Of a stretch of 64,000 nt of DNA, positions 3,900 to 25,369 are shown piece after piece; position 1 is the first letter of the stretch, and each line of letters begins with the position of its first letter. Source of the stretch: Oscillospiraceae bacterium (lineage in GTDB: Bacteria; Bacillota; Clostridia; Oscillospirales; Oscillospiraceae); assembly GCA_017430985.1 (NCBI GenBank), contig JAFRLZ010000069.1, forward strand, positions 302 to 64,301, written 5' to 3'. Both the position numbers and the translations under genes were made by a program. The notes under the pieces were generated by a model. The model saw only the letters and a list, made by a program, of their open reading frames with translations, searched no databases and was not told where the DNA came from.

Positions 3900-3950
3900 A
3901 CAAACAAGGCCGACAGGGGATAACCTCTGCCGGCCGGAAAGGAACAAAGC

Positions 3951-4949: not shown

Positions 4950-4965
4950 GAAAGGGGACGCCAAA

Positions 4966-5223
4966 ATGAAACAGTCCAAAGAACTCATGCGTGTCGCCAT
5001 TGCCAATGTCGAGGAAACACGGGCATTCTGGCAAAAATCTGTTGATGACAGCATGGCTGCGCTTCGCTATCAGATCAACCAGCAGCTGACGGCCAAGAAT
5101 ATCTTCGACGGAAGCATGGACGGTCAGATCAACGAGGTCAAACGCAGATACGCCAGGCTCGCCACCTGCGACGAGATCCTGAGCAATATGCGGTCGGTGC
5201 TCGCCAAGATGGAAGCCGAATAA
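4966..5223 (+). CDS. hypothetical protein (85 aa)
   Basis: ATG at 4966 after AAAGGGGA. Predicted helical/coiled-coil composition. Confidence 0.5.
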   Translation: MKQSKELMRVAIANVEETRAFWQKSVDDSMAALRYQINQQLTAKNIFDGSMDGQINEVKRRYARLATCDEILSNMRSVLAKMEAE

Positions 5224-5294
5224 GATTTCGTAGAATGGCCGCATTGACAACATGCGAGAATCGCGTATAAGAACAGGAAGATGAAAACAACCCA

Positions 5295-5402
5295 ATGGGT
5301 AAAAAAGAATTCGAAGAAAGAATCGATCATTTTCGCATTCTTGACGACACCTTTATGAACGAGGTTTTCAAGGGCCAGAAAGCAATTCGACCAAGCGTAT
5401 GA
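5295..5402 (+). CDS. short ORF (35 aa), possibly a truncated gene remnant
   Basis: Reads MGKKEFEERIDHFRILDDTFMNEVFKGQKAIRPSV. A possible own promoter lies upstream (TTGACA 5244-5249, 16-nt spacer, TATAAG 5266-5271). RBS is weak. Confidence 0.25.
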   Translation: MGKKEFEERIDHFRILDDTFMNEVFKGQKAIRPSV

Positions 5403-5454
5403 ACTTTACAAGGCGATGCTTTTGAAACAATAAATTGGGAGAACAAAGCACAAA

Positions 5455-5481
5455 GCAAGGAGGAAACTCCTTGCTTTTTTT
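5455..5481 (+). terminator. intrinsic terminator ending the ORFan operon
   Basis: GCAAGGAG / CTCCTTGC stem with GAAA loop, followed by TTTTTTT. Confidence 0.8.
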
Positions 5482-5490
5482 ACGCCAAGA

Positions 5491-5646
5491 TTGACAAGAT
5501 TACACATTTGCGGTATTATATGATCGTACTATGGTAGTTAAGGTTTACTGTGGCTCAGTGCCGCAGTAAACCTTTTCTGCTGTAGATAAATCCCGCGTTC
5601 ACAGACTCACTGTTTCCCCATATTGGGGCAGGTGAGTCTGTTTTTT
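5491..5646 (+). promoter_or_regulatory. promoter plus structured leader/terminator module, copy B
   Basis: TTGACA (5491-5496), 17-nt spacer, TATTAT (5514-5519). Hairpin 1 at 5542-5572 and hairpin 2 at 5602-5640, followed by TTTTTT. Every element is offset by exactly 3340 nt from copy A. Confidence 0.7.
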
Positions 5647-5691
5647 ATATACGTTTGCTTAAAACGAGAAAAAACATGGAGGTAGAGACAA

Positions 5692-5949
5692 ATGACTTTT
5701 TCGTTATCTCAGATTGCGAGGTGCTACGCTGCCACGGTCGGCAGAGATTCGTACACCTCCGAAAAAGATGTGACCATGCGGTTGAAATCGAGCATTTCTC
5801 GTCAGCAGACCAATGTTCTCGATGACGACCGCGACATCCGAAATCCGAAGGAGATCTATGACCAGACCATCGGAGCGGAGTGCAGCAAGAAGAGCGGCAA
5901 ACTGCCGTTGAAGAGACTTCAGGGAAAGCACTTCGTCGCTCTTGCCTGA
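5692..5949 (+). CDS. hypothetical protein (85 aa)
   Basis: GGAGG lies 9 nt upstream of the ATG. First ORF after leader copy B. Confidence 0.55.
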   Translation: MTFSLSQIARCYAATVGRDSYTSEKDVTMRLKSSISRQQTNVLDDDRDIRNPKEIYDQTIGAECSKKSGKLPLKRLQGKHFVALA

Positions 5950-5976
5950 AGGAAAAAAAGAATAGGAGGGAAAAAC

Positions 5977-7190
5977 ATGTGCAAACCCCAATCTCTTGAC
6001 TCCTACGAAACTCTTTTTGGGAAAGACCGTTTTGCGGATCTTATCAAAGAAGTCGAGGAGATGGAAGCCAACTCCAAGTGGATTCCCGACGTGGAGACCG
6101 CGGGCATGACGGTGAAGACCGTCGATGGCCGTCCGCTCTTCGTGACCGAGGAAGCCAAGGAACCTTCGTGACCGAGGAAGCCAAGGAACTCGGCGCCGAC
6201 GAGGAGCTCACGGAGGAAACCGGCATCACCGGCTCCGGCCTTGCTCTTCAGCTGCCGAATGGACGCACCGAGCTGTTGAGGGACACTGCTATGTCAGGTC
6301 TTCTCAACGCCGGCAAGATCGACGGCAAGTGGCAGAGCTATGTCACCAAGCCGGAATTCTGCCTGATCATGAACACGATCTTTCCCCATATCCGCACGAA
6401 ACGCCTTGTGCTGGAACGTTGGGGGAAGGTGAGCGCCATTCATTCTCAGGCGGATGGCGGTTACGAGATCATCCCGATCTCGGCTGCCCTTGAGATCGCC
6501 GTAGACGCACTCAGAAAGCGCTTCGGAAAGCTGGTGTTCACGAGCGGGTACAACTCCCACTCGCGCACAGAGGCCGTCTGGGAGCTTCCAGACGCCCAGA
6601 GCGCCCTGTGTCAGAAGTATCAGGATGCGCTCGACGGTACGATGTCTCAGGTTCCGGTCAACTTCATGCCGGTCGTGCGTTTCCGCTCCTCGGATACGGC
6701 GAACTCCGCTGTCACTCTGGTGCCGGGTTTCAGAAAGCCCGGCGACAAAGCGATCATCAGCTTTGTGCCCGGAGCAAGGACTGAGCACACAAAGGGCGGC
6801 AAGGAGGAAGACGTTTCCGGTCTTGATCTGTTCAGAGAGGACGCGGGAATGATCTATTCCCAGTTCGAGAAGAGCATGGAGAAAATCGCCGCGCTCAAGG
6901 ACATCGAGATCAAGCACGGCTGCAATGCCGTGATCGGCCTGGCGAAAAAGCTGGTGATCTCGCGCAAGTACGCGGAAGCCGCTCGTTCGACCATGGAGAT
7001 GTTCACCGACGGCGACATCGGCAATCCCGTGACCGGCCATGACCTCTATTTGGCGATGACCGAATGCATTTCTGAGGCAGTGCGTTCCGGCGCCTCCCAG
7101 AAGACGATCATGGACACGGAGGAGAAGGTCTACCGGATGCTCAAATTCGATCTGACCGAGTATGACAAAGGTGGTGTGGTGGCCTGGTGA
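5977..7190 (+). pseudogene. DUF932-like phage/plasmid protein gene split by a 26-bp tandem duplication (frameshift)
   Basis: ORFs 5977-6171 and 6078-7190 both read FVTEEAKE across the duplicated unit. Deleting one unit gives a continuous 395-aa ORF. The DUF932 assignment is tentative and rests on RFRSSDTANSAVTL-type segments. Confidence 0.7.
6138..6189 (+). repeat. perfect 26-bp tandem duplication (2 units)
   Basis: CTTCGTGACCGAGGAAGCCAAGGAAC occurs at 6138-6163 and again at 6164-6189. Confidence 0.95.
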
Positions 7191-7238
7191 TCCAGGCTGC
7201 CACCTTCCGAAAAAAAGTAAATAGGAGATGAAACAAAA

Positions 7239-8672
7239 GTGTTCTTCGAATGTAATCTTCCGAGGTCACTGATCCCGGTCTATCAGCCCTGGCTCTATCA
7301 GGCGCTGGAGAGCACGATCAGGACGGTGTATCAGAGGACGAAAAAACTCAACGCCGCGCTGGATTATCTCAATCGCTGCGGCTGTCCCATGCAGCCGGAA
7401 ACGTTTCAGCTTTGGGCGAGCTCCGTCTTTAAGCTGAATCCCGGCCGCTTCGATGCGCTTTCGCACGCGGAGCTGGCAACGCTCTGCATGTCGCTGTACG
7501 ACGGCGAGGAGCAGCCGAAGCGTCTGGAGTTTCCCAATGCCATTGTGCTGTATGATACCGCCTTTGTCACGACGAAGGATTGGGAGATCCTGCGGCACAT
7601 CGGGCTCGGCGGCTCGGACAGCTCGGTCACGAACGGTGCTTCCGAGTTCCAGACCGAAGAAGGGCTTTTCTATGAAAAGCTCGGCTATACGGATCTGCTG
7701 GCGGCTGCCGGGAAGAGACTCTCGGACGACAAAGGCGGCGCCGTATTCGAACGCGGTCATAACGTGGAAGATAAGGTGATCTCCATTTTCTGCGAAATGA
7801 CCGGAGCTGTTCGAATCCGTGAAACGCGCATGTTCCAGAGCAAGCGTTACCCCGCTTGCACGGCCAACGTGGACGCAATCCTCAGGATGCCTGACGGCGA
7901 AACGGTTCCCTTCGAGGCCAAGTCCACGATAGACCAGTACACCACGAAGCAGAAGTGGTTCGGCGATGCGGTTCCCATGTACTATCTCACGCAGGTGCAT
8001 CAGTATCTCGGCGTGCTCGACGATCCGCGCATCAAGCGTGCGTTTATCGGTTGCCTGCCGGTCAACGATGTCATTCTGGCGGATAAGTACATCGCCAGCG
8101 AGCCGGCCTACTTCAATGGTGAGCGTCAGTATTTCCATCAGGAAATCAAACGGGATCTGGAGATGGAAACCGCGGTCATGACCAATGCCCAGAATTTCTG
8201 GGACAGGTATATCGCCATGAATCTCAAGCCGAATCCCAGCGGGAAAGCGGACATGGATCACTATGTCGCGCTGCATTTCCGCCCTTCGCCTTTGACGGAC
8301 GACGCTGCTGCAGACCTTGAGACGCCCATCAATATCGCCTACGGCGATGTGGAGGACGACTACGCCCAGTTCAAAAAGCTGGATGCCGAGATCTCTTCGC
8401 TGCAGGAACGCATCAAGACGCTGGACGAGGGCCGGAAGGTTCTCAAGGATAAGCTGGCAAATCTTATGGGAGATTCCGTAGCCGCCACCGTGATCGATCA
8501 CGACGGTAACCCGATCTTCTATATGACCAACAAGCCCGGCGCCAAGATCACCTATGATCGGGAGATCCTTGAGAAATATTTCCCGGAGGCGGAAGAGAAA
8601 GCGAGGCGGGTTTCCTCCTATCTCACGCTCCGCGTAACGGAGAAGGCGCCCAAGAAGAAAAAGACCAAGTAA
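7239..8672 (+). CDS. YqaJ-like (lambda-exonuclease fold, PD-(D/E)XK) recombination exonuclease domain protein, 477 aa
   Basis: GLGGSDSSV...FYEKLGY...FERGHNVEDKV...ANVDAIL...FEAKST...VPMYYLTQVHQYLGV matches the YqaJ motif order. GTG start after GGAG. Has an extra N-terminal region of about 110 aa and a C-terminal coiled coil. Confidence 0.7.
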   Translation: MFFECNLPRSLIPVYQPWLYQALESTIRTVYQRTKKLNAALDYLNRCGCPMQPETFQLWASSVFKLNPGRFDALSHAELATLCMSLYDGEEQPKRLEFPNAIVLYDTAFVTTKDWEILRHIGLGGSDSSVTNGASEFQTEEGLFYEKLGYTDLLAAAGKRLSDDKGGAVFERGHNVEDKVISIFCEMTGAVRIRETRMFQSKRYPACTANVDAILRMPDGETVPFEAKSTIDQYTTKQKWFGDAVPMYYLTQVHQYLGVLDDPRIKRAFIGCLPVNDVILADKYIASEPAYFNGERQYFHQEIKRDLEMETAVMTNAQNFWDRYIAMNLKPNPSGKADMDHYVALHFRPSPLTDDAAADLETPINIAYGDVEDDYAQFKKLDAEISSLQERIKTLDEGRKVLKDKLANLMGDSVAATVIDHDGNPIFYMTNKPGAKITYDREILEKYFPEAEEKARRVSSYLTLRVTEKAPKKKKTK

Positions 8673-8747
8673 ATCCCGGAAAGGGGAGAGGGACATGAAA
8701 GAATTTCTGCTCCCCTCGCGGGCCGCTCCTGTAGAGGGGGTGACTCT

Positions 8748-10931
8748 GTGACGGGAGAAGAGAACCAGAAGCAGTTGGAAACTCTGGAAGCAACATTCCA
8801 ATCCAGCATCTTTGAGGCAGCGGACAAGAGCTTCTGCATTTACCGGTATATGCGTTCAGACGGATCGCAGGTGATCGCAGTCGGAACGGATCTGCCGAAT
8901 CGCAGACAGCTCCCCGTACTGCTGCATGGAACGTGGGAGATCTCCAAGAAAACCGGCGGCAAGCAGCTGCGCGTTGCTTACTCGGAAGCGGCGCCTGTGC
9001 GCGACAGGGATCAGGTCATTTCCTACCTGTGCTCTTTGAAGTGCGGGATCGGGAAAATGAAAGCCATGGCCATCTGGAAACGCTACGGTGAAGCCAGCTG
9101 GGACGTTCTGGACAACGATCCGGATAAGATGGTGAAAGACAAGCTTATTTCGCCAAAAATCCTTGAAAAGCTGATGGATGCGCAGAAAAGCGCGATCTTG
9201 TCCCGCAATCTGCTGAAGCTGTTCGCGGAGGCGAACATCCCGGTAGGCGGAGACATGATCCACCGTCTGATCGAAAGACACGGAGAAAAAGCCGATGTGC
9301 TGCTCCGTGATAACCCGTATATCGCCATCTCGCGCGATGAGCTGTCCTTCGAGAAGGCAGATGCGCTCGCTGATGCTCTCGGTTTTGCCAAAAACGATCC
9401 CCGCCGCATGGCCGCTGTGATCGTGAAGGTTCTGGATGACGCGGCTGTGAACGGTCATGTATGCGTTCCAAAGGAAATGCTGCTGGATATGGTCAAAACC
9501 TATACCGGCTGCCCTATGGAGGAATGCGTCAAGGCCATCAATGCCGCATGCCGTGAGAAAAAAGCTGTTTATAGCAGCGGCTTTGTGTATGCCAAAAGGC
9601 GATACGACGAAGAAACTGCCATAGCAGACAACATCCAGAGACTGATGACGGCCTGCTCCGATCCGGTCCGCGGCCTGGATGCGTTCATCTCAGACTACGA
9701 ACGCGAGAACTTCTCGCTTGCGGAATCGCAGCGGGAAGCGATCCTGCGCGTCTTCGAGTCCGGCGTGAGCGTGATCACAGGCGGCCCCGGCACAGGCAAG
9801 AGCACCGTCACGAACGCGATCCTGTATGTCCACAAAAAGGCGTATGGGGAGTCGAGCGAGCCGATCCTGCTCGCGCCGACCGGGAAAGCCGCAAGGCGTC
9901 TTGGAGAAGCGAGCGGCTGCGGCGCGCAGACGATCCACTCCGCCGTGGGCTGGCGCGGCGATGAAGTCGAGGCAGAGCCGTGCTCTCTGCACGGGAACCT
10001 CTTCATCATCGACGAGAGCTCCATGATGGATCAGTTCGTTTGCGATATCTTGCTGGAGGCCATCCCGAGCGGCGCCCGCGTCGTCTTCGTAGGTGACTGC
10101 GACCAGCTTCCGTCTGTCGGATGCGGCAATGTCCTGAGTGATTTCATCTCCTCGGAGGTGATCCCCACGACGAGGCTGCACGTCATCTTCCGTCAGGCCG
10201 AAGACAATCCGATCATCGAGAACGCCCGCCGAATGAACGAAGGCGACTCGAACCTCATATACACCGATACGTTTCGGTTTTATGAGGCGCACAGCTCCGA
10301 CGAGCTGTTCGAGTCCGCCTGTGATTTCTATGCGCGCTGTGTGGAAGCATACGGGATCACGAATGTGATGCTCTTGAACCCACAACGCAACCACAGTGAT
10401 CTGACTGTGGACCGGTTCAACGCCGCGCTTCAGGAACGCATCAACCCACCCTCCGACGACAAGAACGAAATCCGGATCGGTCGTCAGATCTTTCGGGAAG
10501 GGGATCGCGTCATGGAGCTGCGGAACACCGAGCGTTCCAAGAACGGCGATACAGGCGTGATCCACCGGATCGAGAAGCGGGAAAGCAGCACTGATCCTCC
10601 CGAGTTCTACAGCGTGGCCATCATCGAATTCAACGACGACGGCGTTCTGCTGGATTACAATGCGGACGACCTGCATCATGTGACGCTGGCCTATGCCAAT
10701 ACCGTCCACAAGGCGCAGGGCGAAGAGTTTCAGACCGTGATCATGGTCATCACAAAGGCCCATTACGCGATGCTTCGCCGGAATCTCGTTTATACGGCTG
10801 TTACGAGAGCCAAGCAGCATGTCGTACTTATGGGTCAGCTGGATGCGTTGGACACGGCCGTGAAAAACAATCAGGCGGATGTGAGGTATACCTTGCTGGC
10901 CGCCAGATTGAGGCACAAACTGAAGAAATAG
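8748..10931 (+). CDS. RecD-like (RecD2/SF1B) ATP-dependent DNA helicase, 727 aa
   Basis: Walker A GGPGTGKST, Walker B IIDESSM, VGDCDQLPSVGCGNV, TVHKAQGEEF, VYTAVTRAKQHVVLMG. GTG start after AGAGGGGG. Confidence 0.85.
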   Translation: MTGEENQKQLETLEATFQSSIFEAADKSFCIYRYMRSDGSQVIAVGTDLPNRRQLPVLLHGTWEISKKTGGKQLRVAYSEAAPVRDRDQVISYLCSLKCGIGKMKAMAIWKRYGEASWDVLDNDPDKMVKDKLISPKILEKLMDAQKSAILSRNLLKLFAEANIPVGGDMIHRLIERHGEKADVLLRDNPYIAISRDELSFEKADALADALGFAKNDPRRMAAVIVKVLDDAAVNGHVCVPKEMLLDMVKTYTGCPMEECVKAINAACREKKAVYSSGFVYAKRRYDEETAIADNIQRLMTACSDPVRGLDAFISDYERENFSLAESQREAILRVFESGVSVITGGPGTGKSTVTNAILYVHKKAYGESSEPILLAPTGKAARRLGEASGCGAQTIHSAVGWRGDEVEAEPCSLHGNLFIIDESSMMDQFVCDILLEAIPSGARVVFVGDCDQLPSVGCGNVLSDFISSEVIPTTRLHVIFRQAEDNPIIENARRMNEGDSNLIYTDTFRFYEAHSSDELFESACDFYARCVEAYGITNVMLLNPQRNHSDLTVDRFNAALQERINPPSDDKNEIRIGRQIFREGDRVMELRNTERSKNGDTGVIHRIEKRESSTDPPEFYSVAIIEFNDDGVLLDYNADDLHHVTLAYANTVHKAQGEEFQTVIMVITKAHYAMLRRNLVYTAVTRAKQHVVLMGQLDALDTAVKNNQADVRYTLLAARLRHKLKK

Positions 10932-10943
10932 GAGGAGATGAAA

Positions 10944-11162
10944 ATGCCGGAAATCAAACGGCGTTACGTGTACAATGGCGCGGTCTCCTCGTATGACCGC
11001 GTTATCTGTGACAGGTGCGCAGAGGTCGTCACCTGGGCAAGCTCCGCTTCAAAAGCGGAATCCAATGTCAAATTCCAGCTCCGCAGGCGCTGGAACATGG
11101 CGCAATACGTCCCTTTGAAACTTTTGGACAAGATCAGGGAAGCCCCTGCTTCTCCTGCCTAA
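10944..11162 (+). CDS. hypothetical protein (72 aa)
   Basis: GGAGG at 10931-10935 is spaced 8 nt from the ATG at 10944, so this start is preferred over 10938. Confidence 0.45.
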   Translation: MPEIKRRYVYNGAVSSYDRVICDRCAEVVTWASSASKAESNVKFQLRRRWNMAQYVPLKLLDKIREAPASPA

Positions 11163-11165
11163 AAG

Positions 11166-11194
11166 TGGACAAGAAAGCGTCAATGTGGTATAAT
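11166..11194 (+). promoter_or_regulatory. internal sigma-A-type promoter
   Basis: TGGACA, 17-nt spacer, extended -10 TGTGGTATAAT. Confidence 0.55.
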
Positions 11195-11223
11195 AAAACA
11201 AAAAAAGAAGAAGGAGAATCATC

Positions 11224-12267
11224 ATGGGTTACAACAACGGCAATGGCTACAGCTACAACAATGGCAGCGGCGGCTACGCTCCCCAGGGGCAGCCGCAGAA
11301 CGCGGCTCCTCAGGGCGGATACCCGCAGCAGACCCCTGCGCAGAACTATCCTCCTCAGGGACAGGCGCCCCAGTACGGCACCCCTCAGGGCGGATACCCG
11401 CAGCAGGCTCCAGCTCAGAATCCGGGTTACGCGCCCGCTCCCAACGGCAGCTACGGTCAGGCGCCTCAGCAGAGCGGCTACCAGCAGCAGGGGAGCGGCA
11501 GGGAGAAGGTGCAGTATAGCTCCTATATTGTGAACATTCCGGAAAACGCTTCCTGTCTGGAGGACACTCAGGTAACGGTCGCTCTGAACAACATCGACAA
11601 GAGCCTGAACCTGTATATCGAGCAGCTGACGAGCAAGAACAACAACCGCTGCGTCAAGTTCTCGTTCGATCTCACGATGGCGGACAGCGAGTGCAGCCGG
11701 CTCCTCGGCAAAGATGCCGTGGCGCCCGACCACAAGATACGCTTCGAAGCGCTCATGGCCGGCTGGGATGCGGAAAACTTCCTGAAGTATATCCCGCACT
11801 GCAGCAAGACCATCGTTCTGATGCTTCGGAAGCTGAAGCTCGATTCCTTCACTCGCAGGGACGGTTCATCGGTGCCGAAAGTGGATTGCCTGGTCAGCGG
11901 CTACTTCGTCGTGAACATGAGCAGCAAGTACAAGGCCGCTGCGATCAAGGCGGCGAATCTGGAAGAATCCAAGCCCTACCATGTGAACGTCCGCAAGCCC
12001 AAGAACGATGGCGGCGGCGCTCCCGCTCAGGCCCCGTATTCTCAGCAGAGCGCTCCCTATGGCGCTCCGCAGGGCGGATACCCGCAGCAGGCGCCCGCGC
12101 AGAACACCGGCTACACGCCCGCACCCAACGGCGCTTATGGCCAGCCGCCTCAGCAGAGCGGCTACCAGCAGCCGGGCGGCAACGGCTACGGCTACGGTGC
12201 TCCGCCTCAGAACGGTATGCCCGGCGCTACGCAGTACGGCGGAAGCGGCGGGAAACTCCCGTTCTAA
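11224..12267 (+). CDS. SSB-like OB-fold protein with Q/G/P/Y-rich N- and C-terminal low-complexity tails, ending in LPF
   Basis: The core segment IRFEALMAGWDAENFLKYIPHCSKTIVLMLRKLKLDSFTRRDGSSVPKV resembles the SSB pattern F..a.WG..AE....Y..KGS.v.V.G.L....f..rdG. The C-terminus GGSGGKLPF resembles the SSB ...LPF tip. The tails resemble an SSB Gly/Gln/Pro linker. Confidence 0.45.
   Translation: MGYNNGNGYSYNNGSGGYAPQGQPQNAAPQGGYPQQTPAQNYPPQGQAPQYGTPQGGYPQQAPAQNPGYAPAPNGSYGQAPQQSGYQQQGSGREKVQYSSYIVNIPENASCLEDTQVTVALNNIDKSLNLYIEQLTSKNNNRCVKFSFDLTMADSECSRLLGKDAVAPDHKIRFEALMAGWDAENFLKYIPHCSKTIVLMLRKLKLDSFTRRDGSSVPKVDCLVSGYFVVNMSSKYKAAAIKAANLEESKPYHVNVRKPKNDGGGAPAQAPYSQQSAPYGAPQGGYPQQAPAQNTGYTPAPNGAYGQPPQQSGYQQPGGNGYGYGAPPQNGMPGATQYGGSGGKLPF
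11383..11487 (+). repeat. 105-nt intragenic direct repeat, N-terminal copy
   Basis: Encodes PQGGYPQQAPAQNPGYAPAPNGSYGQAPQQSGYQQ. Paired with 12067-12171. Confidence 0.9.
12067..12171 (+). repeat. 105-nt intragenic direct repeat, C-terminal copy
   Basis: Encodes PQGGYPQQAPAQNTGYTPAPNGAYGQPPQQSGYQQ, which matches the N-terminal copy at 31 of 35 residues. Confidence 0.9.
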
Positions 12268-12293
12268 GCGTCAGGTCAACACAATACCGAGAA

Positions 12294-12327
12294 GGCGCAC
12301 AGAGTATATCTCTGTGCGCCTTTTTTT
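12294..12327 (+). terminator. intrinsic terminator after the SSB-like gene
   Basis: GGCGCACAGA / TCTGTGCGCC stem followed by TTTTTTT. Confidence 0.85.
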
Positions 12328-12348
12328 GCTTTTTGAAGCGCCGTTTAG

Positions 12349-12377
12349 TTGACAAGAAAATGCAGATATGGTAGAGT
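12349..12377 (+). promoter_or_regulatory. sigma-A-type promoter of the integration module
   Basis: TTGACA, 17-nt spacer, TG-extended TAGAGT. Confidence 0.6.
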
Positions 12378-12410
12378 GAAAACACCAACAAAAAAAGAAG
12401 GGAACCGGGC

Positions 12411-13244
12411 ATGGAACGCGAAGAAATTGATCTGACCATAAAAAATCTGGACAGGTTTTTTGACCAAGAAAGCGTAAAAATGGCGGACGATCTCGCCGAT
12501 ATCGCCGACAGCATTTTGCCAATCCTCTCCAAAGGCCCGTGGCAGCTTCCGGCCAGCTGTATCATCTCTGATGAAGGCAGAAAACTCGTCGCCAGAGATC
12601 CGGACCTTGGGAAACAAACTCTGGAACAGCTTGTAATCACGGAAAAAGATCTTTTTGATCCAAAGGCGCGAAGTTTCATTGCTACTCATACGCCAAGAGA
12701 GATCATAGACGAAGTTTTCGATTCAAACGGCGGAATAGGCCGTACGCACCTTGCTCTCTGCATCAGAGCAGCAAAGCAGCAGTACATTGCCGATGTCGTT
12801 GCCAGATTTGCCGACGATAAAAAAATCTCGTTCATTGAAGCTGCTTTCTATGTCAAAGCGCTTCACGTATGCAACGATTTTTGGTTCGTGATCCAACAAG
12901 GATATAAACTAAAAAAATACTTTTGGAAACCGGAACCGGCGATCCCGACGGAAGAAATGTCTCCCGCGCCTGTAAAGCCGAAAAAGAAAAAGCCTTCCGG
13001 CGCGAAAGCGACCTTTAAGCTCTCGAAGGATCTGCCGGAGTGCCCGGTCTGCAGCAGCAAGGCCATCATGCTGCGGGGCGGGGAGCGAGGCATGCAGTGG
13101 CAGGCTTGCTGCACAGACCCGGAGCAGAAGTGTGAAAACTATTTATTAAAGGAAACATGGTATCCCTCGGAAAAAGCAGCTGTTTCTGCATGGAAGAAAA
13201 TCGTGAAATCATGCGCAGCGAGAAATGAAACCAGCCGCTCATAA
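12411..13244 (+). CDS. hypothetical protein with C-terminal Lar-like (restriction alleviation family) zinc ribbon, 277 aa
   Basis: The C-terminus LPECPVCSSKAIMLRGGERGMQWQACCTDPEQKCENYLLKETWYPSEKAAVSAWKK fits the Lar-family pattern CPxC...C..C...eeA..aWn.r. The N-terminal 200 aa are unassigned. Confidence 0.5.
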   Translation: MEREEIDLTIKNLDRFFDQESVKMADDLADIADSILPILSKGPWQLPASCIISDEGRKLVARDPDLGKQTLEQLVITEKDLFDPKARSFIATHTPREIIDEVFDSNGGIGRTHLALCIRAAKQQYIADVVARFADDKKISFIEAAFYVKALHVCNDFWFVIQQGYKLKKYFWKPEPAIPTEEMSPAPVKPKKKKPSGAKATFKLSKDLPECPVCSSKAIMLRGGERGMQWQACCTDPEQKCENYLLKETWYPSEKAAVSAWKKIVKSCAARNETSRS

Positions 13245-13288
13245 TACGTCCTTGAGATGGGTAAAATGGCTCAAAAGGAGCATTTGAA

Positions 13289-13501
13289 ATGGATGATAAA
13301 AATGTAATAACCTATACCAAAGGCGAAGGCCAAATTATGGTTAAGAGATCCTTCTGCAATAACGCAAAACCGGTATCCGAAGCGATTAAAGATGTGATAA
13401 TTAAGAAAGCGCATGAAAAAAACATTTTGACGAGTCCGCAAAATCTTGATATGATGTTATCGTATATCGGAGAGCCGACTTGCATCCAAGAAGGAGGGTA
13501 A
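13289..13501 (+). CDS. hypothetical small protein (70 aa) immediately upstream of the recombinase
   Basis: AT-rich ORF. Its stop lies 2 nt before the recombinase ATG, and the recombinase RBS is inside its 3' end. Confidence 0.45.
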   Translation: MDDKNVITYTKGEGQIMVKRSFCNNAKPVSEAIKDVIIKKAHEKNILTSPQNLDMMLSYIGEPTCIQEGG

Positions 13502-13503
13502 AA

Positions 13504-15171
13504 ATGGGACGGCAAGCGGCAACAGATGCAGTTGGATATTATCGACTATCTGATGAAGACGATCTTGAAGGAGAAAGCGGAAGTATAAAAAACCAGCGAA
13601 AAATCGTCAGACAGTACGCCCGAGAACATGGCATCAGAATAGTGCGGGAATTTGTCGATGATAATTTTTCTGGTGCAACAACAAAAAGACCTGGTTTTCA
13701 AGAGATGCTTAGATTTCTTGAGACAGAAAAAACCATTAGTATTGTCATTACAAAAGATCTTTCGCGCCTTGGACGCAGTATTCAGGAAACATCTTTTTAC
13801 GCTGAAGTTTACTTTCCAGACCACGGTATTCGTTACCTTGCCCCGGATGACGGGTTTGATACGGACCGCGATAATGACATGGCTCCGTTTCTTTTTGCTG
13901 TCAACGATTTTTACCTACGGAACGGATCGAAAAAGGTTAAATCTGCCTTTCATATTATGGCAAGTCGAGGCGAGTTTTGCTTTAGAGCGCCCTATGGATA
14001 TAAAAAAGATCCGCAGGATAACCATAAGTTAATTCCAAATGAAGACACCGCACCTGTAGTTAAGCAAATATTCAGCATGGCATGCAGTGGTGCTTCTTCT
14101 TGGAGCATAGCTGAAGAACTAACTAAACAAGGTATCGATCCTCCGTTGAAATATCGTGTTGTCAATATCGAAAGCGCTTCATCTAAAAATGCAAAAATGG
14201 TGAGCGACGAATGGAACAACACAACGGTAAAACGTATCTTGACAAACCCGGTGTATCTTGGCCACACGTTTCTCATTAAAACAACAAAGAAACTGAAAGA
14301 GACCAAAAAAAGACCGGTGCCTGAAGACAAATGGCTCAAAACCTATAACACGCACGAGCCGTTGGTTTCTCAAGAGGATTTTGAGCTGGCTCACAGGTTT
14401 TTGGGGAAGCGAAGAAAAGACTACGAAGAAAACGATCAAGTAAGGATCAATGTTCTCAGCGGGCTTATCTTTTGCAAAACGTGTGGATCTGCCATGTGTT
14501 CCTCTGGAACAGTGTATAAGGGCGAACGGGAACGCTATTGGTATCTGTCGTGTTTGAATGCGCCGGCACGAAGTAAACATCGTTGCGAAGACCCGGCGAG
14601 GATCAAATATGATCTTATAATCGAAGTTGTCAAGGAAGATCTTAATGCACTTATTTCTCTTTCAGCAGAAGAAAAAAACAGCATTATTTGCCAAGCAATA
14701 CGTGAATATTCAAACCGCTATTCTCAACAAGATATCGACAAACGAATCAATGAGATAAAAAAACGCATCGATACAATTTCGGCCATGTCAGTAAGAGTAT
14801 ATGAAGATCTTCTGGAAGAAAAAATCTCACAATCTATTGTTTCGCAAATGATGAACAAGCTCAATAAAGAAGACGAAGATCTGAAAAAAGAACTAAAAAC
14901 TTTGGTCGGGAAAAAACAAACAACAGAGGATATCATAAGCGCCTATCGAAAGTTCTTTGAATTAACTGAGGCTTCAACAATAATAGAGGATTTAACACAT
15001 GAAGTTGTTGCCAAGTTTATTGAAAGAATTGAAATCGGCCCGAAAAAGTATCCGCCAGGAACCGGGAAAGTCTACGCGCGAAGCAAGGTTCCATATACCC
15101 AGGAAGTCAACATAAAGTATAAATACATTGGCTTCCAAAGCATGGGCAATGATAATATCACTGTCAAATAA
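13504..15171 (+). CDS. large serine recombinase (555 aa)
   Basis: Resolvase-type N-terminal domain (VGYYRLSDEDD with catalytic Ser, DLSRLGRS). Recombinase domain, Cys-rich zinc ribbon (CKTCGSAMCSS...C...C) and a C-terminal coiled coil. ATG at 13504 after GAAGGAGGG. Confidence 0.9.
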   Translation: MGRQAATDAVGYYRLSDEDDLEGESGSIKNQRKIVRQYAREHGIRIVREFVDDNFSGATTKRPGFQEMLRFLETEKTISIVITKDLSRLGRSIQETSFYAEVYFPDHGIRYLAPDDGFDTDRDNDMAPFLFAVNDFYLRNGSKKVKSAFHIMASRGEFCFRAPYGYKKDPQDNHKLIPNEDTAPVVKQIFSMACSGASSWSIAEELTKQGIDPPLKYRVVNIESASSKNAKMVSDEWNNTTVKRILTNPVYLGHTFLIKTTKKLKETKKRPVPEDKWLKTYNTHEPLVSQEDFELAHRFLGKRRKDYEENDQVRINVLSGLIFCKTCGSAMCSSGTVYKGERERYWYLSCLNAPARSKHRCEDPARIKYDLIIEVVKEDLNALISLSAEEKNSIICQAIREYSNRYSQQDIDKRINEIKKRIDTISAMSVRVYEDLLEEKISQSIVSQMMNKLNKEDEDLKKELKTLVGKKQTTEDIISAYRKFFELTEASTIIEDLTHEVVAKFIERIEIGPKKYPPGTGKVYARSKVPYTQEVNIKYKYIGFQSMGNDNITVK

Positions 15172-15200
15172 AAGAGCTTTTTGATGTAAAGAGTACACCA

Positions 15201-15323
15201 AGAGAGGTTGGCGTCAACCTGAAGAACGGTTACAACGGCGAGCTCACCAGCCGTCAGGCCGGTTCCATCGGCGGTCAGATGGTTCGTAAGATGATCGAGT
15301 CTTACGAGAACGGTATGAAGTAA
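15201..15323 (+). pseudogene. 3' fragment (40 codons) of an alpha/beta-type small acid-soluble spore protein gene, separated from its 5' part by the element
   Basis: Reads REVGVNLKNGYNGELTSRQAGSIGGQMVRKMIESYENGMK*, matching the SASP core (E.GV....TSR.nGSvGGemvkrmv). No ATG/GTG/TTG lies in frame between the upstream stop (15153-15155) and this segment. Has its own terminator downstream. Confidence 0.8.
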
Positions 15324-15343: not shown

Positions 15344-15380
15344 ATTGCAGGGAAGCATGAGCCTCCCTGCAATTTTCTTT
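15344..15380 (+). terminator. intrinsic terminator of the SASP gene
   Basis: ATTGCAGGGA / TCCCTGCAAT stem followed by TTTCTTTT. Confidence 0.75.
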
Positions 15381-15390
15381 TGGAAAAATG

Positions 15391-15471: not shown

Positions 15472-17469
15472 ATGGGAAAGCACGAAGCGCCGAAAAACAG
15501 CGCGAAGCATGCCCGTCCGGCGGAGAAGAACAGAGCTTCCGCGCCGCTGCGTATGCCCGATCTCTCCGGGATCGCAAGCCGCCTGACCGGGTGGATCCGC
15601 AGGCCGGCGCGCGCTGCGGAGAAGCATGAGCGCAGGGAATACGAGTTCAATATGCAGAACGTCGCCACGGTCGCCGTCGGCGCGCTGCTGTTCGCCGTAG
15701 CCTCTCTGCTCCCGACCAAGGGCTGGGTGCGCCTGCTGGTCTTTTTCGTGCCCTATCTTCTGCTCGGCCTCGATACGCTGCGCGACGCGCTCGTCGAGGC
15801 GCTGGACAGGGAATTTTTCGGTAGTGATCTGCTGATCGCAGCGGCCACGATCGCCTGCTTCGGCATTGGCCAGTGGCAGAGCGCCGTCTTTGTCATGCTG
15901 ATCTACCGGGTCGTCGTCATGGCCTGCGCCTACGCGACGGGCGAGCGGAGCCGCATGGCTGACGAGCTGTGCATCCCGCTGCCCGATACGGCCAAGGTCG
16001 AGACCGGCGCCGGCCTGACGGAGAGCGAACTCTCCGCCGTTGCGGTGGGCAGCATCGCGGTCGTGGAACCCGGTGAGATCATCCCGCTCGACGGCATCGT
16101 CGTGGACGGCGTCTCCAGCGTCGAGCTCTCTCCGCTGACCGGTGGCGACACGATCCGCAACGTTGCGACCGGCAGCGCCGTATATGCCGGCAGCGTCAAC
16201 CGCACGAACGAACTCCGCATCCGCACGACGGCCGAGAACTATGCCTCGCTTGCGGAGAAGGCGAGCCGTATCGCCGGACAAGCCGCCGAATCGCAGACGC
16301 GCTCCGGCCAGCCGCTGCGCTATGCCGCGCGTCTGATTCCCGTGCTCTTCACGGTCGCCGCCCTTGTCGTCGGCGTTCTCGTGCCCGTCCTGGGCGGGAA
16401 TTGGAGCACCTGGCTTTACCGCGGCGTGCTGCTGCTGTGCGTCGCCGGGAGCGCTCCGCTGCTCCTGGCGCTGTCTCTCGCGTCCCACACGGCCGTTTGC
16501 CGCGCGGCAGGCCTCGGAGCATATCTGCGCAGCGTCGACGCGCTGGACAGCCTCTCGCGCGCGGAAACGATGATCTTCACGAAGACCGGGACCGTCACGG
16601 AGGGCCACTATGTGGTCGAGGCCGTCTATCCCGAGAAATACAGCGAGAAGGATCTTCTCACGATCGCCGCGCTGGCGGAGTGCCAGTCTCTGCACCCCAT
16701 CGCGCAGGCGCTGCGCGAGGCCTGCGGGATCGGGATCCACCGCCGCGAGGACATCCATCTTGTGGAGGAGGTCCCCGGCCGCGGCGTCAGCACGCTTTTC
16801 TCCGGCCGCAGCGTCTATGTGGGCAATGCGGCGCTGCTCCTGGAGCATGACGTCCAGTTCTCCGTGCCCTCCCGCAGCGGCACCGTGGTCCACGTCGCCG
16901 TCGACGGGGAATATGCCGGACATATCGTCCTCAACGACAAGGTGCGCGAAGGCGCCTTCGACGCGGTGGAGGAGCTGCGCATCCGCGGCGTCCGCTCGAC
17001 CGTGATGCTGACGGGGGACATGCGGTCCGTGGCGCGGCCGATCGCCTCCTCGCTCAACTTCGACCTGGTCAAATGCGAACTCTCGCCGGACGCGAAGATC
17101 TCCGCGCTGGAATATCTCCAGGCATCCAAGGGCAGCCAGGCCGCCATCGCCTGTGTCAGCTGCAAGGACAGGGACGAAGAGTTGCTCAAGCGCGCCGACG
17201 TCGGCATCCTCTTTGCCGCGCTCGATCAGAACCGTGCGCTGGAAGCGGCGGATATCTCGATCCTTGACAACAGCATCCACCGCCTCCCCAAGCTGTATGC
17301 GATCGCCAAGAGCATGTCCCTGCGCTTCCGCGAGGATCTGATCGCGTATTTCGCCGTGAAGGCGCTGCTGCTTCTCCTCGGGATCCTGGGCGTGCTGAGC
17401 ATCTGGGCGGCGGTGCTGCTCGACCTTCTGGCTGCGGTGGCCGTCCTGTTCAACGCTTTTCGGAAGTGA
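15472..17469 (+). CDS. P1B-type (heavy-metal) P-type ATPase homolog with degenerate catalytic motifs
   Basis: Collinear with CadA/ZntA-type pumps: HP motif SLHPIAQA, TGD in MLTGDMRS, and C-terminal TM helices. However DKTGT reads FTKTGT, TGES reads LTGGD, CPC reads CVAGSAP, and GDGxND reads SCKDRDE. ATG at 15472 after AGGAG. Confidence 0.75.
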   Translation: MGKHEAPKNSAKHARPAEKNRASAPLRMPDLSGIASRLTGWIRRPARAAEKHERREYEFNMQNVATVAVGALLFAVASLLPTKGWVRLLVFFVPYLLLGLDTLRDALVEALDREFFGSDLLIAAATIACFGIGQWQSAVFVMLIYRVVVMACAYATGERSRMADELCIPLPDTAKVETGAGLTESELSAVAVGSIAVVEPGEIIPLDGIVVDGVSSVELSPLTGGDTIRNVATGSAVYAGSVNRTNELRIRTTAENYASLAEKASRIAGQAAESQTRSGQPLRYAARLIPVLFTVAALVVGVLVPVLGGNWSTWLYRGVLLLCVAGSAPLLLALSLASHTAVCRAAGLGAYLRSVDALDSLSRAETMIFTKTGTVTEGHYVVEAVYPEKYSEKDLLTIAALAECQSLHPIAQALREACGIGIHRREDIHLVEEVPGRGVSTLFSGRSVYVGNAALLLEHDVQFSVPSRSGTVVHVAVDGEYAGHIVLNDKVREGAFDAVEELRIRGVRSTVMLTGDMRSVARPIASSLNFDLVKCELSPDAKISALEYLQASKGSQAAIACVSCKDRDEELLKRADVGILFAALDQNRALEAADISILDNSIHRLPKLYAIAKSMSLRFREDLIAYFAVKALLLLLGILGVLSIWAAVLLDLLAAVAVLFNAFRK

Positions 17470-21458: not shown

Positions 21459-21487
21459 GAATAATGTTTGTCCCCGTCCAATACAAT
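21459..21487 (+). promoter_or_regulatory. candidate sigma-E-type promoter of the spoIIIA operon
   Basis: GAATAAT ... AATACAAT resembles the remembered -35 xxATATT / -10 CATACAxT consensus. Spacing and consensus could not be verified here. Confidence 0.3.
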
Positions 21488-21506
21488 GAGCACAGGGAGT
21501 GAGACG

Positions 21507-22373
21507 ATGGACGCATACGAAAGCGCGCTGCGGCTGATCCCGCCGCGCTATATCGATATCTGCCGCCGCAGCTGCGCCGGTGCGGAGGAGTTCCGCCTCC
21601 GCGTCGGACAGGGCATGACGGCGCTCTGCGCGGGACGGGAGCGGCGTCTCCCGGGCGATCCGCTTCGGGAGGAAGAGCTGCTGCGGGTCCTGGAGAAGGC
21701 CACGGGAGCGTCGGTTCACAGCGCTGCCGCAGAGATGGCGCGCGGCTTCGTGTCCTGGCAGGGGCTGAGGATCGGCCTGTGCGGCGTCGCCGTGGAGCAC
21801 GACGGCGCTTTCAGGGGCTTTCGCAGCTACAGCTCGCTGTCGATCCGCATCCCGCACGAGGCCCGCGGGGCCTGCGACGGGATCTTTCGCACCATGCGGG
21901 ACGGGAGCTTCGTCAACACCCTGATCCTGTCGCCGCCGGGCGGCGGGAAGACGACGGCGCTGCGCGAGCTCATCCGTCTGTTCGCCAACAGCGGCCGGCG
22001 CGTCGGCGTCGTCGACGAGCGCGGAGAGATCGCCGCCGTCTGCGGCGCGCGTCCCGGCTTCGATCTGGGACAGGCCTGCGACGTGATGAGCCTCTGCGGG
22101 AAGCGGGAAGGCGCGATGATGCTCCTCCGAGGGATGAACGAGCAGATCCTCGCCATGGACGAGATCACACAGCCGGAGGACCTGGCGGTGATCCGGGAGA
22201 TCGTCGGCTGCGGCGTGGGGATCCTGGCGACGGCGCACGCCGCGGGCGCGGTCGAGCTGAGGCAGAGACCGCTCTATGCCTCGCTTCTGGATGAGCAGCT
22301 CTTCACACGGGCGGTGCTGATCCGCCAGACGGGCGGGGAGCGCCGCTACGAGCTGTGCGCGCTGCCGGCATGA
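21507..22373 (+). CDS. spoIIIAA: stage III sporulation protein AA (ATPase)
   Basis: Walker A SPPGGGKTT, then VGVVDERGEIA. First gene of an 8-gene spoIIIA-ordered cluster. Confidence 0.9.
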   Translation: MDAYESALRLIPPRYIDICRRSCAGAEEFRLRVGQGMTALCAGRERRLPGDPLREEELLRVLEKATGASVHSAAAEMARGFVSWQGLRIGLCGVAVEHDGAFRGFRSYSSLSIRIPHEARGACDGIFRTMRDGSFVNTLILSPPGGGKTTALRELIRLFANSGRRVGVVDERGEIAAVCGARPGFDLGQACDVMSLCGKREGAMMLLRGMNEQILAMDEITQPEDLAVIREIVGCGVGILATAHAAGAVELRQRPLYASLLDEQLFTRAVLIRQTGGERRYELCALPA

Positions 22374-22879
22374 ACCTGTGCGGAGCCGCGCTCGTCCTGC
22401 TCGGCTGCCTCTATGGGGCCGTCTCCATGACGAGAGAGCAAAAGCGGCGTGTCGCGGCGCTCCGGGAGATGGATGCGGCGCTTGAGCGGCTCGGCGCTGA
22501 GATGGCGCTGAGACTCAGCGGCCTGCCGGATCTGACGGCGCTCCTGGCCGGGAGCTCGCACGGAGCGGCGGCACGCTTTTTCACCTGTCTGCACGGCCTG
22601 CTTTCCGAGCTCGGGAACAAGCCCTTTCATGTTTTGTGGGAGACCGCCGTCGAGCGGAGTTTGCAGGAGCTGTCGGCTGAGGACAGAAGCGAGCTTCTCC
22701 GCCTCGGGGAATGTCTCGGCCGGTATGAACTGGCCGAGCAGCTCAAGGCGCTCGACGCCTGCCGGGCACAGCTCGGGCGCAGCATCGAGGCGCGGAGATC
22801 CGGCCTGACGGATCAGAGACGCCTGATCTTCGGGCTGTGGCTGGCTGCGGGCGGACTGCTCTGTATCGTGTTGTTGTGA
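22370..22879 (+). CDS. spoIIIAB: stage III sporulation protein AB
   Basis: ATGA overlap with spoIIIAA. About 170 aa with N- and C-terminal TM segments. Assigned partly from position in the operon. Confidence 0.8.
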   Translation: MNLCGAALVLLGCLYGAVSMTREQKRRVAALREMDAALERLGAEMALRLSGLPDLTALLAGSSHGAAARFFTCLHGLLSELGNKPFHVLWETAVERSLQELSAEDRSELLRLGECLGRYELAEQLKALDACRAQLGRSIEARRSGLTDQRRLIFGLWLAAGGLLCIVLL

Positions 22880-22887
22880 GGGAAGCT

Positions 22888-23082
22888 ATGGATGTGGATC
22901 TGATCTTCAAGATCGCTGCCGTGGGAGTCGTCGTCGCGGTGATGAATCTGCTGCTGCAGCGCGCCGGGCGGGACGAGCTTGCCCTGATGACGACGATCGC
23001 GGCGCTCGTCGTCGTGCTGACGATGGTGGTCCAGCGGATCAGCGATCTCTTTGCGCTGATCCGTCAGCTTTTCGGGTTTTAG
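22888..23082 (+). CDS. spoIIIAC: stage III sporulation protein AC
   Basis: 64-aa two-TM protein reading MDVDLIFKIAAVGVVVAVMNLLLQRAGRDE... Confidence 0.9.
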   Translation: MDVDLIFKIAAVGVVVAVMNLLLQRAGRDELALMTTIAALVVVLTMVVQRISDLFALIRQLFGF

Positions 23083-23468
23083 TGGAGCTCGTCCTGCGCG
23101 CGGGAGCGCTCGCGCTCTGCGGCGCCTTTGTCGTGCTGCTGCTCCGCCGCAGCGCGCCCGAGCTCGCTCTTCCGCTCTCGGCGGCGGCCGTCGTCGTGAT
23201 CTTGACTGTCACGCTCGGCTTTCTGGGCGGGATACGCGATCTGGAAAAAGCCGCGCACGACAGCTTCGGCGTCTCGGACCTGTATACACAGCCGATGCTC
23301 AAATGCCTGGGGATCGCGCTCGTGACGAGATTTGCCGCCGACCTCTGCCGCGACGCCTCGCAGAGCGCGGCGGCCTCCGCCGTGGAGCTCGCGGGCGCCG
23401 CCTGCGCGCTCGGGGTGGTCCTGCCGCTGCTGACGGGCGTTTTGAAAACCATCGGAGGACTGCTGTGA
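23082..23468 (+). CDS. spoIIIAD: stage III sporulation protein AD
   Basis: 128-aa polytopic membrane protein directly after spoIIIAC. GTG start. Confidence 0.85.
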   Translation: MELVLRAGALALCGAFVVLLLRRSAPELALPLSAAAVVVILTVTLGFLGGIRDLEKAAHDSFGVSDLYTQPMLKCLGIALVTRFAADLCRDASQSAAASAVELAGAACALGVVLPLLTGVLKTIGGLL

Positions 23469-24553: not shown

Positions 24554-25035
24554 CGGCGGCGCTGCGTCTGCTGTGCGCGCTGGCGGTCTTCTGCGGCGCG
24601 CTGCTGAGCGTGATGCCCGAGGGGAGCGTCAAGCGCATCGCCGCGATCGGCTGTACGGCCGCGATGCTCCTGGCCGTGCTGGGCGCGCTGCGCGAGCTGG
24701 ACCCGGGCGACTTCACCCTGGAGCTCGCCCGTTACCGTGAACTCGGCAGAGAACTCGCCGTTCGCTCGGAAGAGGTCAGGGACAGGCTGAACCGCAGCGT
24801 CATAGAGGAAGAGTACGAGGCATATATATGTGACGAAGCAAAGCGCTTCGGGGCCGACGGCATCCGCGCGGAGGTCACGCTGCGCTGGGATATGGCCGGC
24901 GTGTGGCTTCCGTATGAGATCAGGCTGAGCGGGCGAGCTGACCGCGATGCGGTCGCCCGGCTGCGCGAGCGGATCGGCGCGGAGCTCGGCGTGCCGCCGG
25001 AGAGGATAAGCTGGGACGATGAAGAGCGAGGATAA
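24550..25035 (+). CDS. spoIIIAF: stage III sporulation protein AF
   Basis: ATGA overlap with spoIIIAE. Two N-terminal TM helices plus a soluble domain. Assigned partly from operon position. Confidence 0.75.
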   Translation: MTAALRLLCALAVFCGALLSVMPEGSVKRIAAIGCTAAMLLAVLGALRELDPGDFTLELARYRELGRELAVRSEEVRDRLNRSVIEEEYEAYICDEAKRFGADGIRAEVTLRWDMAGVWLPYEIRLSGRADRDAVARLRERIGAELGVPPERISWDDEERG

Positions 25036-25351: not shown

Positions 25352-25369
25352 AAGGGAGGAATCGGAGTT

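Follow-up and report, generated by a model that had tools for sequence, protein, structure and literature searches.

Insertion of a 166-kb mobile element of gut Clostridia at a GA dinucleotide within an alpha/beta-type spore protein gene

Serine-recombinase elements have been described in several sporulation genes, skin in sigK, vfbin in spoVFB, vrin in spoVR and gin in gerE, and their precise excision restores the open reading frame (ORF) of the host (PMC5595907, PMC6957869). The 134-kb SPbeta, with the large serine recombinase (LSR) SprA, splits the sporulation-only gene spsM of Bacillus subtilis, and its exact excision rebuilds the gene (PMC4191935; PMC5499854). 'Almost all' of the intervening elements are located in mother-cell genes (Suzuki et al. 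2020, PMC6957869), which agrees with what the original prediction on the locus described here, made from the DNA sequence alone, had stated about the known ones. Outside the sporulation genes, the recombinase TndX is reported to be sufficient for both integration and excision, to use a central GA dinucleotide and to have a strong preference for a conserved Fic-domain coding sequence, a target that was argued to offer a promiscuous element a ubiquitous site (PMC4430133). Here we describe a 64,000-nt stretch of DNA from an Oscillospiraceae bacterium (hereafter the window; assembly GCA_017430985.1, contig JAFRLZ010000069.1, positions 302 to 64,301), in which the gene of a TndX-like LSR is directly followed by the 3' part of ssp, a gene for an alpha/beta-type small acid-soluble spore protein (SASP), which protects the DNA of the spore. 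The LSR gene lies at the right end of a 166,283-bp element that is inserted in ssp. It is likely that an integrative element, of the plasmid-like or conjugative kind, has here undergone an ordinary reversible site-specific integration, and that its target is a conserved gene which the growing cell can do without. What appears to be new, by the full-text literature searched, is the alpha/beta SASP gene as the site; LSR integration into conserved coding sequence with exact reversal is known. The features that carry the argument are the following.

1 to 15205, plus strand: right-hand 15.2 kb of the 166,283-bp integrated mobile element, the remainder lying left of the window (GC content, contig identity)
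13504 to 15171, plus strand: TndX-like LSR, 555 aa (Pfam)
15178 to 15203, plus strand: attP-left (element-derived) half of attR, including GATGTA at 15183-15188 (identical in the attP contigs L004, L007 and L009)
15204 to 15205, plus strand: GA crossover dinucleotide (alignment of the att sites; 2-nt overlap of the flanks on the empty-site contig L041, 4082-4083)
15204 to 15323, plus strand: 3' fragment of the alpha/beta-type SASP gene, codons 28-66 and stop, without promoter or start codon (Pfam PF00269)
15344 to 15381, plus strand: ssp transcription terminator, stem ATTGCAGGGA/TCCCTGCAAT and T-run (read from the sequence)
15472 to 17469, plus strand: host flank, E1-E2 (P-type) ATPase, the syntenic neighbour of ssp in related genomes (Pfam)

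The LSR ORF closes with a TAA at 15169-15171. It has a YYRLSDED...SIKNQ motif near its N-terminus, and Pfam recognises the domains Resolvase (PF00239, 1.7e-22), Recombinase (PF07508, 8.6e-23), Zn_ribbon_recom (PF13408, 5.9e-10) and DUF4368 (2.7e-9), so that the predicted enzyme has the resolvase catalytic, recombinase and zinc-ribbon domains of the large serine recombinases. Directly 3' of this gene are the final 39 codons of ssp. Their frame is opened by an in-frame stop at 15153-15155, there is no ATG, GTG or TTG among the codons 15156-15200, and the earliest in-frame start codon is an internal Met near the C-terminus of the SASP, which is irrelevant. The frame reads ...STPREVGVNLKNGYNGELTSRQAGSIGGQMVRKMIESYENGMK stop, or in its final part ...REVGVNLKNGYNGELTSRQAGSIGGQMVRKMIESYENGMK stop, and ends at 15323. 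The fragment matches PF00269 with E=2.7e-18, at profile positions 21-59 of 59 only, which means that it is a genuine 3' gene fragment and no chance match, and it is 100% identical to the 3' part of an intact gene found on the contigs L040-L045. The terminator behind it, a hairpin at 15344-15373 with a T-run to 15381, was missed by the terminator scanner owing to its 10-nt loop. The original prediction had named the LSR stop, the frame without a start codon, the C-terminal SASP fragment and the terminator, and all four were found as described. With tblastn, no 5' half of ssp was found inside the window.

When the LSR was looked up in public assemblies, two kinds of contigs appeared. In most of them the LSR is followed by the ssp fragment and the P-type ATPase, and in L004, L007 and L009 it is followed by other genes. 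All element contigs are identical through window position 15205 and diverge beyond it in the alignment, which implies that the second kind is the circular (attP) junction. The attP junctions come from three independent assemblies and are the dominant assembled form in three samples. The first gene past this junction, a 158-aa ORF, was used as a query to locate attL, and on the attL contigs it is preceded by a 35-aa ORF with a SASP match in Pfam and then by host genes. The junctions read GCCGCCTCT GA TGTAGGAATC at attL, ACACCAAGA GA GGTTGGCGTC at attR and ACACCAAGA GA TGTAGGAATC at attP, and attB, which lies inside the most conserved stretch of ssp, reads TTCAAGATGGAGGCCGCCTCT-GA-GGTTGGCGTCAACCTGAAG. 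The GA is the sole sequence common to the four. As read from these junctions, the exchange is conservative at a 2-bp core, between short attP and attB sites that are otherwise different, in the manner of an LSR. A GATG motif stands 16-17 nt from the core in attP as compared to 12 nt in attB, and this agrees with the usual offset between attP and attB half-sites.

The insertion is situated between codons 27 and 28 (Ser-Glu) of ssp. In the window the ssp-derived sequence starts at E28 (GAG, 15204-15206), and the 'PR' in front of it is encoded by the attP arm of the element. The promoter-bearing 5' half was found with attL at the far end of the element, 166,283 bp upstream of the window fragment on the same metagenomic contig. 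Its predicted place, beyond the left end of the element and outside the window, was right, and the missing part is 27 codons rather than the roughly 25 first suggested. The attL ORF is thus a stub of 35 aa, made up of 27 SASP residues and DVGITQTY. Joining the left part of attL to the right part of attR at the GA (MSTKNSNHLVNPAAREAMDKFKMEAAS to EVGVNLKNGYNGELTSRQAGSIGGQMVRKMIESYENGMK) gives an intact SASP ORF of 66 aa, which matches PF00269 over its full length (positions 1-59 of 59, E=9.4e-29) and so belongs to the SASP family. Of its residues 65/66 are identical to an intact syntenic orthologue, which lies ahead of the orthologous ATPase in a related GTDB metagenome-assembled genome (MAG; L024).

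The exact reconstructed protein also occurs in public assemblies. On these contigs (L040-L045) an intact ssp lies between an HpcH-type aldolase and obg to the left and the ATPase, HAD, TetR and GlnA to the right, the same neighbours as in the occupied host, and the order ssp-ATPase-HAD-TetR-GlnA(III) is shared with related species. The left flank of attL aligns to the empty site with 99.9% identity over 4,012 nt, ending at 4083, and the right flank of the window with 100% over 4,097 nt, starting at 4082. The flanks overlap by the GA alone, which implies that the insertion is perfectly conservative at this dinucleotide and that the element is polymorphic within the species. The proposed check, that a reconstructed attB should hold an intact ssp, was in this way answered by an exact empty site in the same species. 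In several independent assemblies (L060-L064, L012) contigs break off within ssp. L061 begins at the very GA core and the rest begin no more than ~55 nt from it, as is typical of a sample that contains occupied as well as empty alleles. Both attP (L007) and an empty attB (L044) are present in the sample ERZ27256806, and on single contigs of two hosts attL and attR stand in direct orientation, 166,283 bp apart. Taken as natural forms, attP, attB, attL and attR indicate that integration and excision both happen in the wild.

Two other explanations for the junctions were rejected. An assembly artefact does not account for four junction types that share 2 bp only and were obtained again and again, with three assemblers and from >15 samples. 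A rearrangement that fused two elements, each in its own ssp paralogue, does not agree with the empty-site contigs, which carry both flanks of the first host (host A) together.

The window maps to the contig ERZ28018991:k141_383113 with an offset of 166,102, and attL at ~15,023 and attR at ~181,306 on this contig give the element its size of 166,283 bp. Window positions 1-15205 are 99.8-100% identical to the element contigs of other samples and to the attP contigs. On a contig from a second host (host B) the spacing between attL and attR is also 166,283 bp, and the element copies in the two hosts are 99.8% identical. The right flank of host B is only 77-89% identical to that of host A, and the left flanks are unrelated, with LacI and an alcohol dehydrogenase in host B and the aldolase and obg in host A. 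A near-identical element in differing flanks implies a recent entry into the same ssp codon in two species. The element is active and horizontally mobile, and it crosses species. The contigs L034 and L037 hold an ssp whose protein is identical to the SASP of host A in 64/66 residues; it adjoins obg-rpmA-rplU in the opposite orientation as compared to host A, and the aldolase gene is missing. This arrangement could be a chromosomal inversion or another rearrangement with one end at ssp.

The GC content is ~63% right of the junction, in the host DNA (15400-64000), ~54% in the remainder of the element (measured over 1-13000) and ~40% in the LSR gene (13504-15171). These three layers suggest that cargo and recombination module were acquired independently of each other, which would fit a trade of recombination units among mobile elements. 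An intact spoIIIA operon (AA, AB, AC, AD, AE ... AH) is found at 21468-25903, 6 kb downstream of the insertion, and is followed by nusB and xseA. The host is probably an Oscillospiraceae-like, spore-forming bacterium of the gut Clostridia with ~63% GC, and the intact operon suggests that its sporulation is functional.

The same site in ssp is also used by other elements. A homologue search returned several truncated SASP homologues, each with an unrelated N-terminus that ends exactly ahead of EVGVNL. The contigs L018 and L021 belong to other elements, whose LSRs are 47-53% identical to that of the window and which are joined to ssp at the identical GA. One sister element in this set (L018/L019, L021-L023) carries Viral_Rep and FtsK/SpoIIIE, a cargo like that of a small mobilisable element, and sits in an ssp at a different locus, beside FTHFS; another carries a JetD_C/DUF6063/1453-aa (Wadjet-like) cluster. 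GTDB genomes were also scanned for GATGTA with the ssp 3' part starting 13-16 nt behind it. Five loci (L048-L052) came up, and in every one of them the ssp 3' fragment stands after an LSR that is 37-52% identical. Furthermore, on a contig deposited as a phage of the faecal virome ('Bacteriophage sp.', MT836041.1, L053) an LSR of 46% identity adjoins a 5' ssp fragment (12290-12395) in the opposite orientation, with a crossover core that was not pinned down. Since this 5' ssp fragment comes from the host, the record is an integrated element with a host junction and not a virion genome. Seven further LSR lineages are thus joined to ssp, six of them at the identical GA and the seventh being MT836041.1. 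Together with the window element this makes eight LSR lineages on unrelated mobile elements (the others 37-53% identical to the window enzyme), seven at the identical GA. The seven attP arms that meet ssp at this GA are distinct, and each has (A)GATGTA 14-17 nt away, as compared to AAGATGGA 12 nt away in attB.

The attB sequence is conserved in 71 of the 80 closest orthologues in GTDB. These 80 come from 80 different genomes, and no second copy was found within ±2.5 kb, the count covering this ssp type only. In the full-text literature, with subscription journals outside the scope, we found no report of ssp as an attachment site, nor of an alpha/beta SASP gene or any forespore gene in this role. 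Single-protein scans of GTDB and IMG/VR with the LSR, a method that detects near-identical proteins only, gave no confirmed relatives. An exact 36-mer from the left end of the element is absent from the GTDB genomes, and a 29-mer across the attP junction is absent from IMG/VR and the JGI metagenomes. Two of the loci from the pattern scan (L051 and L052, GTDB Clostridia MAGs from goat jejunum) have a tandem second ssp paralogue ~110 nt downstream of the LSR-interrupted fragment, on the minus strand from 7115 to ~6790. An insertion of ~190 nt interrupts this paralogue after EVGVN, a second one follows GGQM, and both have the repeat gcgttaaaa..gcaatgc. They could be intron-like, or resemble miniature inverted-repeat transposable elements, in a SASP gene.

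Among the annotated recombinases, TndX is the best relative of the LSR, with 31% identity over 96% of the length (E=1e-65). The DUF4368 domain, the GA core and the full-length similarity to TndX place the enzyme in the TndX/TnpX-like subgroup. With Tn5397/TndX of Clostridioides difficile, and with TnpX of Tn4451, it shares the LSR architecture including the C-terminal DUF4368, and with Tn5397/TndX also the central GA crossover and the choice of a conserved protein-coding target. The identity to TndX is ~31% only, so the LSR forms a separate clade. The target is ssp and not a Fic-domain gene, and whereas Tn5397 is a 21-kb conjugative transposon of the Tn916 type, the element here is 166 kb with a plasmid-like cargo. 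To skin, vfbin, vrin and gin the likeness lies in the recombinase that the element carries itself, in the split sporulation gene, small or essential, and in the exact excision, which restores the ORF here as well. Those elements are fixed or defective, reside in mother-cell genes and have a proven developmental excision. Unlike them, the element described here is polymorphic, with empty alleles in the same species, and freshly mobile between species. Its target also differs from the mother-cell-specific ones of skin and SPbeta. The alpha/beta SASP genes studied in Bacillus and Clostridium are transcribed by sigma-G in the forespore.

From these comparisons a simple mechanism can be proposed. 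The TndX-like LSR would recombine a short attP, with GATGTA ~17 nt to the left of the core, with attB in ssp, and exchange strands at the 2-bp GA. In the integrated state the promoter-bearing 5' part would encode nothing more than the 35-aa stub, and this copy of ssp would be off, because the 3' part has neither promoter nor start codon. Excision is the exact reversal and regenerates an intact 66-aa ssp and a circular element. The choice of site may be explained by its near-invariance across many Oscillospiraceae species, which would give the element a wide host range, and by ssp being silent and dispensable during vegetative growth. Such an argument, of a conserved and growth-silent target, has been made for TndX and for sporulation genes generally (PMC4430133; PMC6957869). 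Excision would then accompany transfer or an episomal phase and not a sporulation programme, and the LSR may, by analogy to what is reported for TndX, need no separate directionality factor. The original prediction had offered two options, a mere knock-out of one ssp paralogue or an excision in the germ line. We lean towards plain reversible integration because the LSR is TndX-like and its promoters are of the sigma-70 type, while the element has moved between species recently and is not fixed in this one. The features that surround the LSR, and the nucleic-acid enzymes of the window, are these.

7239 to 10931, plus strand: cargo, YqaJ/RecE-like exonuclease (7239-8672) and RecD2-like helicase (8748-10931) (Pfam, PHROGs)
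12289 to 12377, plus strand: intrinsic terminator (12289-12325), then sigma-70-like promoter (12349-12377, TTGACA-17-TAGAGT) (terminator and promoter scan)
12411 to 13244, plus strand: 277-aa ORF, first gene of the operon, weak Lar-like zinc-ribbon match (Pfam E=7.6e-4, under the curated cut-off)
13289 to 13501, plus strand: 70-aa ORF immediately 5' of the LSR (position conserved in sister elements)
13427 to 13455, plus strand: second sigma-70-like promoter (TTGACG-17-TG-TATGAT), 49 nt 5' of the LSR start (consensus match only)

The LSR is the third gene of a three-gene operon that opens at the strong terminator and the first of the two promoters. Its first gene, the 277-aa ORF, is kept in all element copies. 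The second, the 70-aa ORF, has a counterpart of 63 aa at the equivalent position in two other ssp-targeting elements, and its similarity to the copy on L021 is weak (E=0.005); neither it nor the 63-aa counterparts have a match in Pfam or NCBIfam. It is a candidate for an accessory or directionality factor. All the sister elements of the L018/L019 and L021-L023 set retain an ORF of 63-70 aa directly upstream of the LSR. At attL the ssp stub is followed by a hairpin, read from the sequence, by a perfect TTGACA-17-TATAAT promoter and then by the first element gene, which suggests that the genes of the left end run on their own signals. Upstream of ssp itself, GCATA-N17-AAAGATA is at best a weak sigma-G-like match, and at attL the ssp promoter points into the left end of the element. 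A perfect 9-nt inverted repeat, GTGCATATC-N17-GATATGCAC, spans the presumed -35 and -10 of ssp (L010 9553-9587, the same as L040 ~3925-3960). It is conserved in host B and may be an operator or an RNA hairpin. No convincing promoter of the sigma-F, G, E or K type was seen near the LSR on inspection by eye, from which no conclusion is drawn.

The type of the element was judged from the ~64 kb that were read out of its 166 kb. Its left end holds genes for a DUF4942/Dam-like methyltransferase, a RecG-like helicase, an S26 signal peptidase, two tyrosine recombinases, YdjM, a sortase and ParA. The right end consists of long one-directional arrays of small ORFs without assigned function, among which LPD34, YodL/guanylate kinase, a transglutaminase core, a SprT-like protein, DUF5983, DUF4314 and SSB could be named, together with an HD nuclease, the RecE/YqaJ-like exonuclease and the RecD2-like helicase. 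Within the ~64 kb there is neither a relaxase nor a type IV secretion system, nor are there genes for a phage capsid, tail, portal or lysis. Genes for partition, a sortase, SprT and SSB make us lean towards a plasmid-like or conjugative integrating element over a phage. Within the right end, two regions between genes (window 2119-2291 and 5459-5631) share a direct repeat of 173 nt with 84% identity, and an ORF at 11224-12267 contains three copies of a 54-nt coding repeat (span 11292-12176).

A large temperate phage of the SPbeta kind, with excision tied to lytic induction and the attP contigs derived from virions, is nevertheless the alternative that survives best, even if we regard it as unlikely. 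The combination of 166 kb and an LSR does resemble SPbeta, with its 134 kb and SprA (PMC4191935). One-directional arrays of small ORFs, SSB, a RecE-like exonuclease, a Dda/RecD-like helicase and a methyltransferase would also be in place in a phage, and so would attP contigs as the dominant assembled form in three samples. However, the part of the element that was read lacks the phage genes named above, and of 30 element proteins compared with PHROGs most had no match. PHROGs recognised the RecE-like and helicase proteins, besides a few families that have no known function, and the only match in a structural category was a marginal one to a terminase small subunit (E=3.5e-4) on the guanylate-kinase-like protein. 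The RecD2-like helicase has no relative in IMG/VR, and its identity to phage records does not exceed 34%. ParA, sortase, signal peptidase, the SprT-like protein, DUF4314 and LPD34 are a typical cargo of Gram-positive conjugative elements and plasmids. The 46%-identical LSR on the 'Bacteriophage sp.' contig could be taken as a phage connection, but that contig holds a host ssp junction and thus an integrated element.

The other alternative is a developmental switch in the germ line, where excision in the forespore restores ssp, the circle persists in the spore, possibly aided by the ParA and Xer-like functions, and re-integrates after germination. The Listeria phage phi10403S in comK ('active lysogeny') offers a conceptual parallel, in that it excises reversibly and thereby turns on a host gene without being lost, although recombinase and trigger are different there. 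A germ-line switch seems improbable to us, but several observations would fit it. Excision is exact and restores the full SASP, one sample contains attP as well as empty-attB contigs, ParA and the two tyrosine recombinases would suit a free replicon, and the ssp promoter faces the left end of the element. The host probably sporulates, given its intact spoIIIA operon, and with a single orthologue of this ssp type per genome among the 80 GTDB relatives the gene may matter. On the other hand, neither a sporulation-type promoter nor a directionality factor was identified. In SPbeta, whose likeness to the present element lies in its very large size (134 as compared to 166 kb) and in the LSR-mediated, exactly reversible splitting of a sporulation gene, the interrupted spsM belongs to the mother-cell (sigma-K) genes, and excision is restricted to that cell by the sigma-E/K promoter of sprB, which encodes the directionality factor. 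Here a forespore gene family is the target, and the part read has no phage genes. The LSR operon has sigma-70-like promoters, the hairpin and the perfect sigma-70 promoter after the ssp stub suggest that the left-end genes use their own signals, and the element is polymorphic and recently transferred, unlike the fixed skin. The sister LSRs come with ordinary mobile cargo (Rep/FtsK, Wadjet-like), and attP and attB in one metagenome are explained equally well by free or plasmid copies plus uninfected cells. An extended version, in which a TndX-like clade is specialised on the main SASP gene of the Oscillospiraceae and its 166-kb member is a germ-line switch, with a sigma-F/G or ssp read-through cue, a ParA-maintained circle in the spore and re-integration, is a shade less probable still.

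Some points do weigh against plain reversible integration. One orthologue of the interrupted ssp type per genome may mean that the gene is the main alpha/beta SASP, in which case a permanent knock-out would be costly and restoration of the gene favoured. In the sample with both attP and empty attB (ERZ27256806), no attL or attR contig was among the matches listed, a pattern that also fits excision inside cells or spores. Consensus promoter matches are no evidence of regulation, and sigma-F/G/E/K promoters are not reliably scorable. The remaining ~100 kb of the element could hold a relaxase and type IV secretion genes, phage structural genes, a replacement ssp in the manner of the sspC of SPbeta, or a sporulation-controlled excision factor. 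Finally, a dead relic, that is a decayed insertion with ssp as a pseudogene and a non-working LSR, would fit the 3' fragment without start codon or promoter, but it is hardly conceivable with an LSR ORF that is intact in all its domains and an equal length of 166,283 bp at 99.8% identity in two species, and it is effectively refuted by the circular junctions in three assemblies and by both ssp halves being undecayed and 100% identical to the intact allele.

With its GA core and arms of 40-50 bp, the attP/attB pair is a naturally validated serine-integrase system from gut Clostridia that handles a large cargo. For the biology of sporulation, the position in ssp is of more general interest. To our knowledge, the well-studied elements that split sporulation genes are all in mother-cell genes, where an excision leads nowhere because the element is retained in the spore. 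This location underpins the reading of such elements in terms of 'soma versus germ line', and the ssp site is a gene of the forespore type. If the excision is not developmental, sporulation genes would attract integrases merely by being conserved and silent during growth, which weakens the adaptive readings of other cases, and the spores of carriers are predicted to be short of SASP. Were the element to excise in the forespore, SASP could be made again, but the germ-line chromosome would lose the element. The programmed rearrangements that we know of in bacteria all take place in a terminally differentiated cell. If the excision of this element is developmental, it would follow a new logic, and be the first programmed DNA rearrangement in a bacterial germ line.

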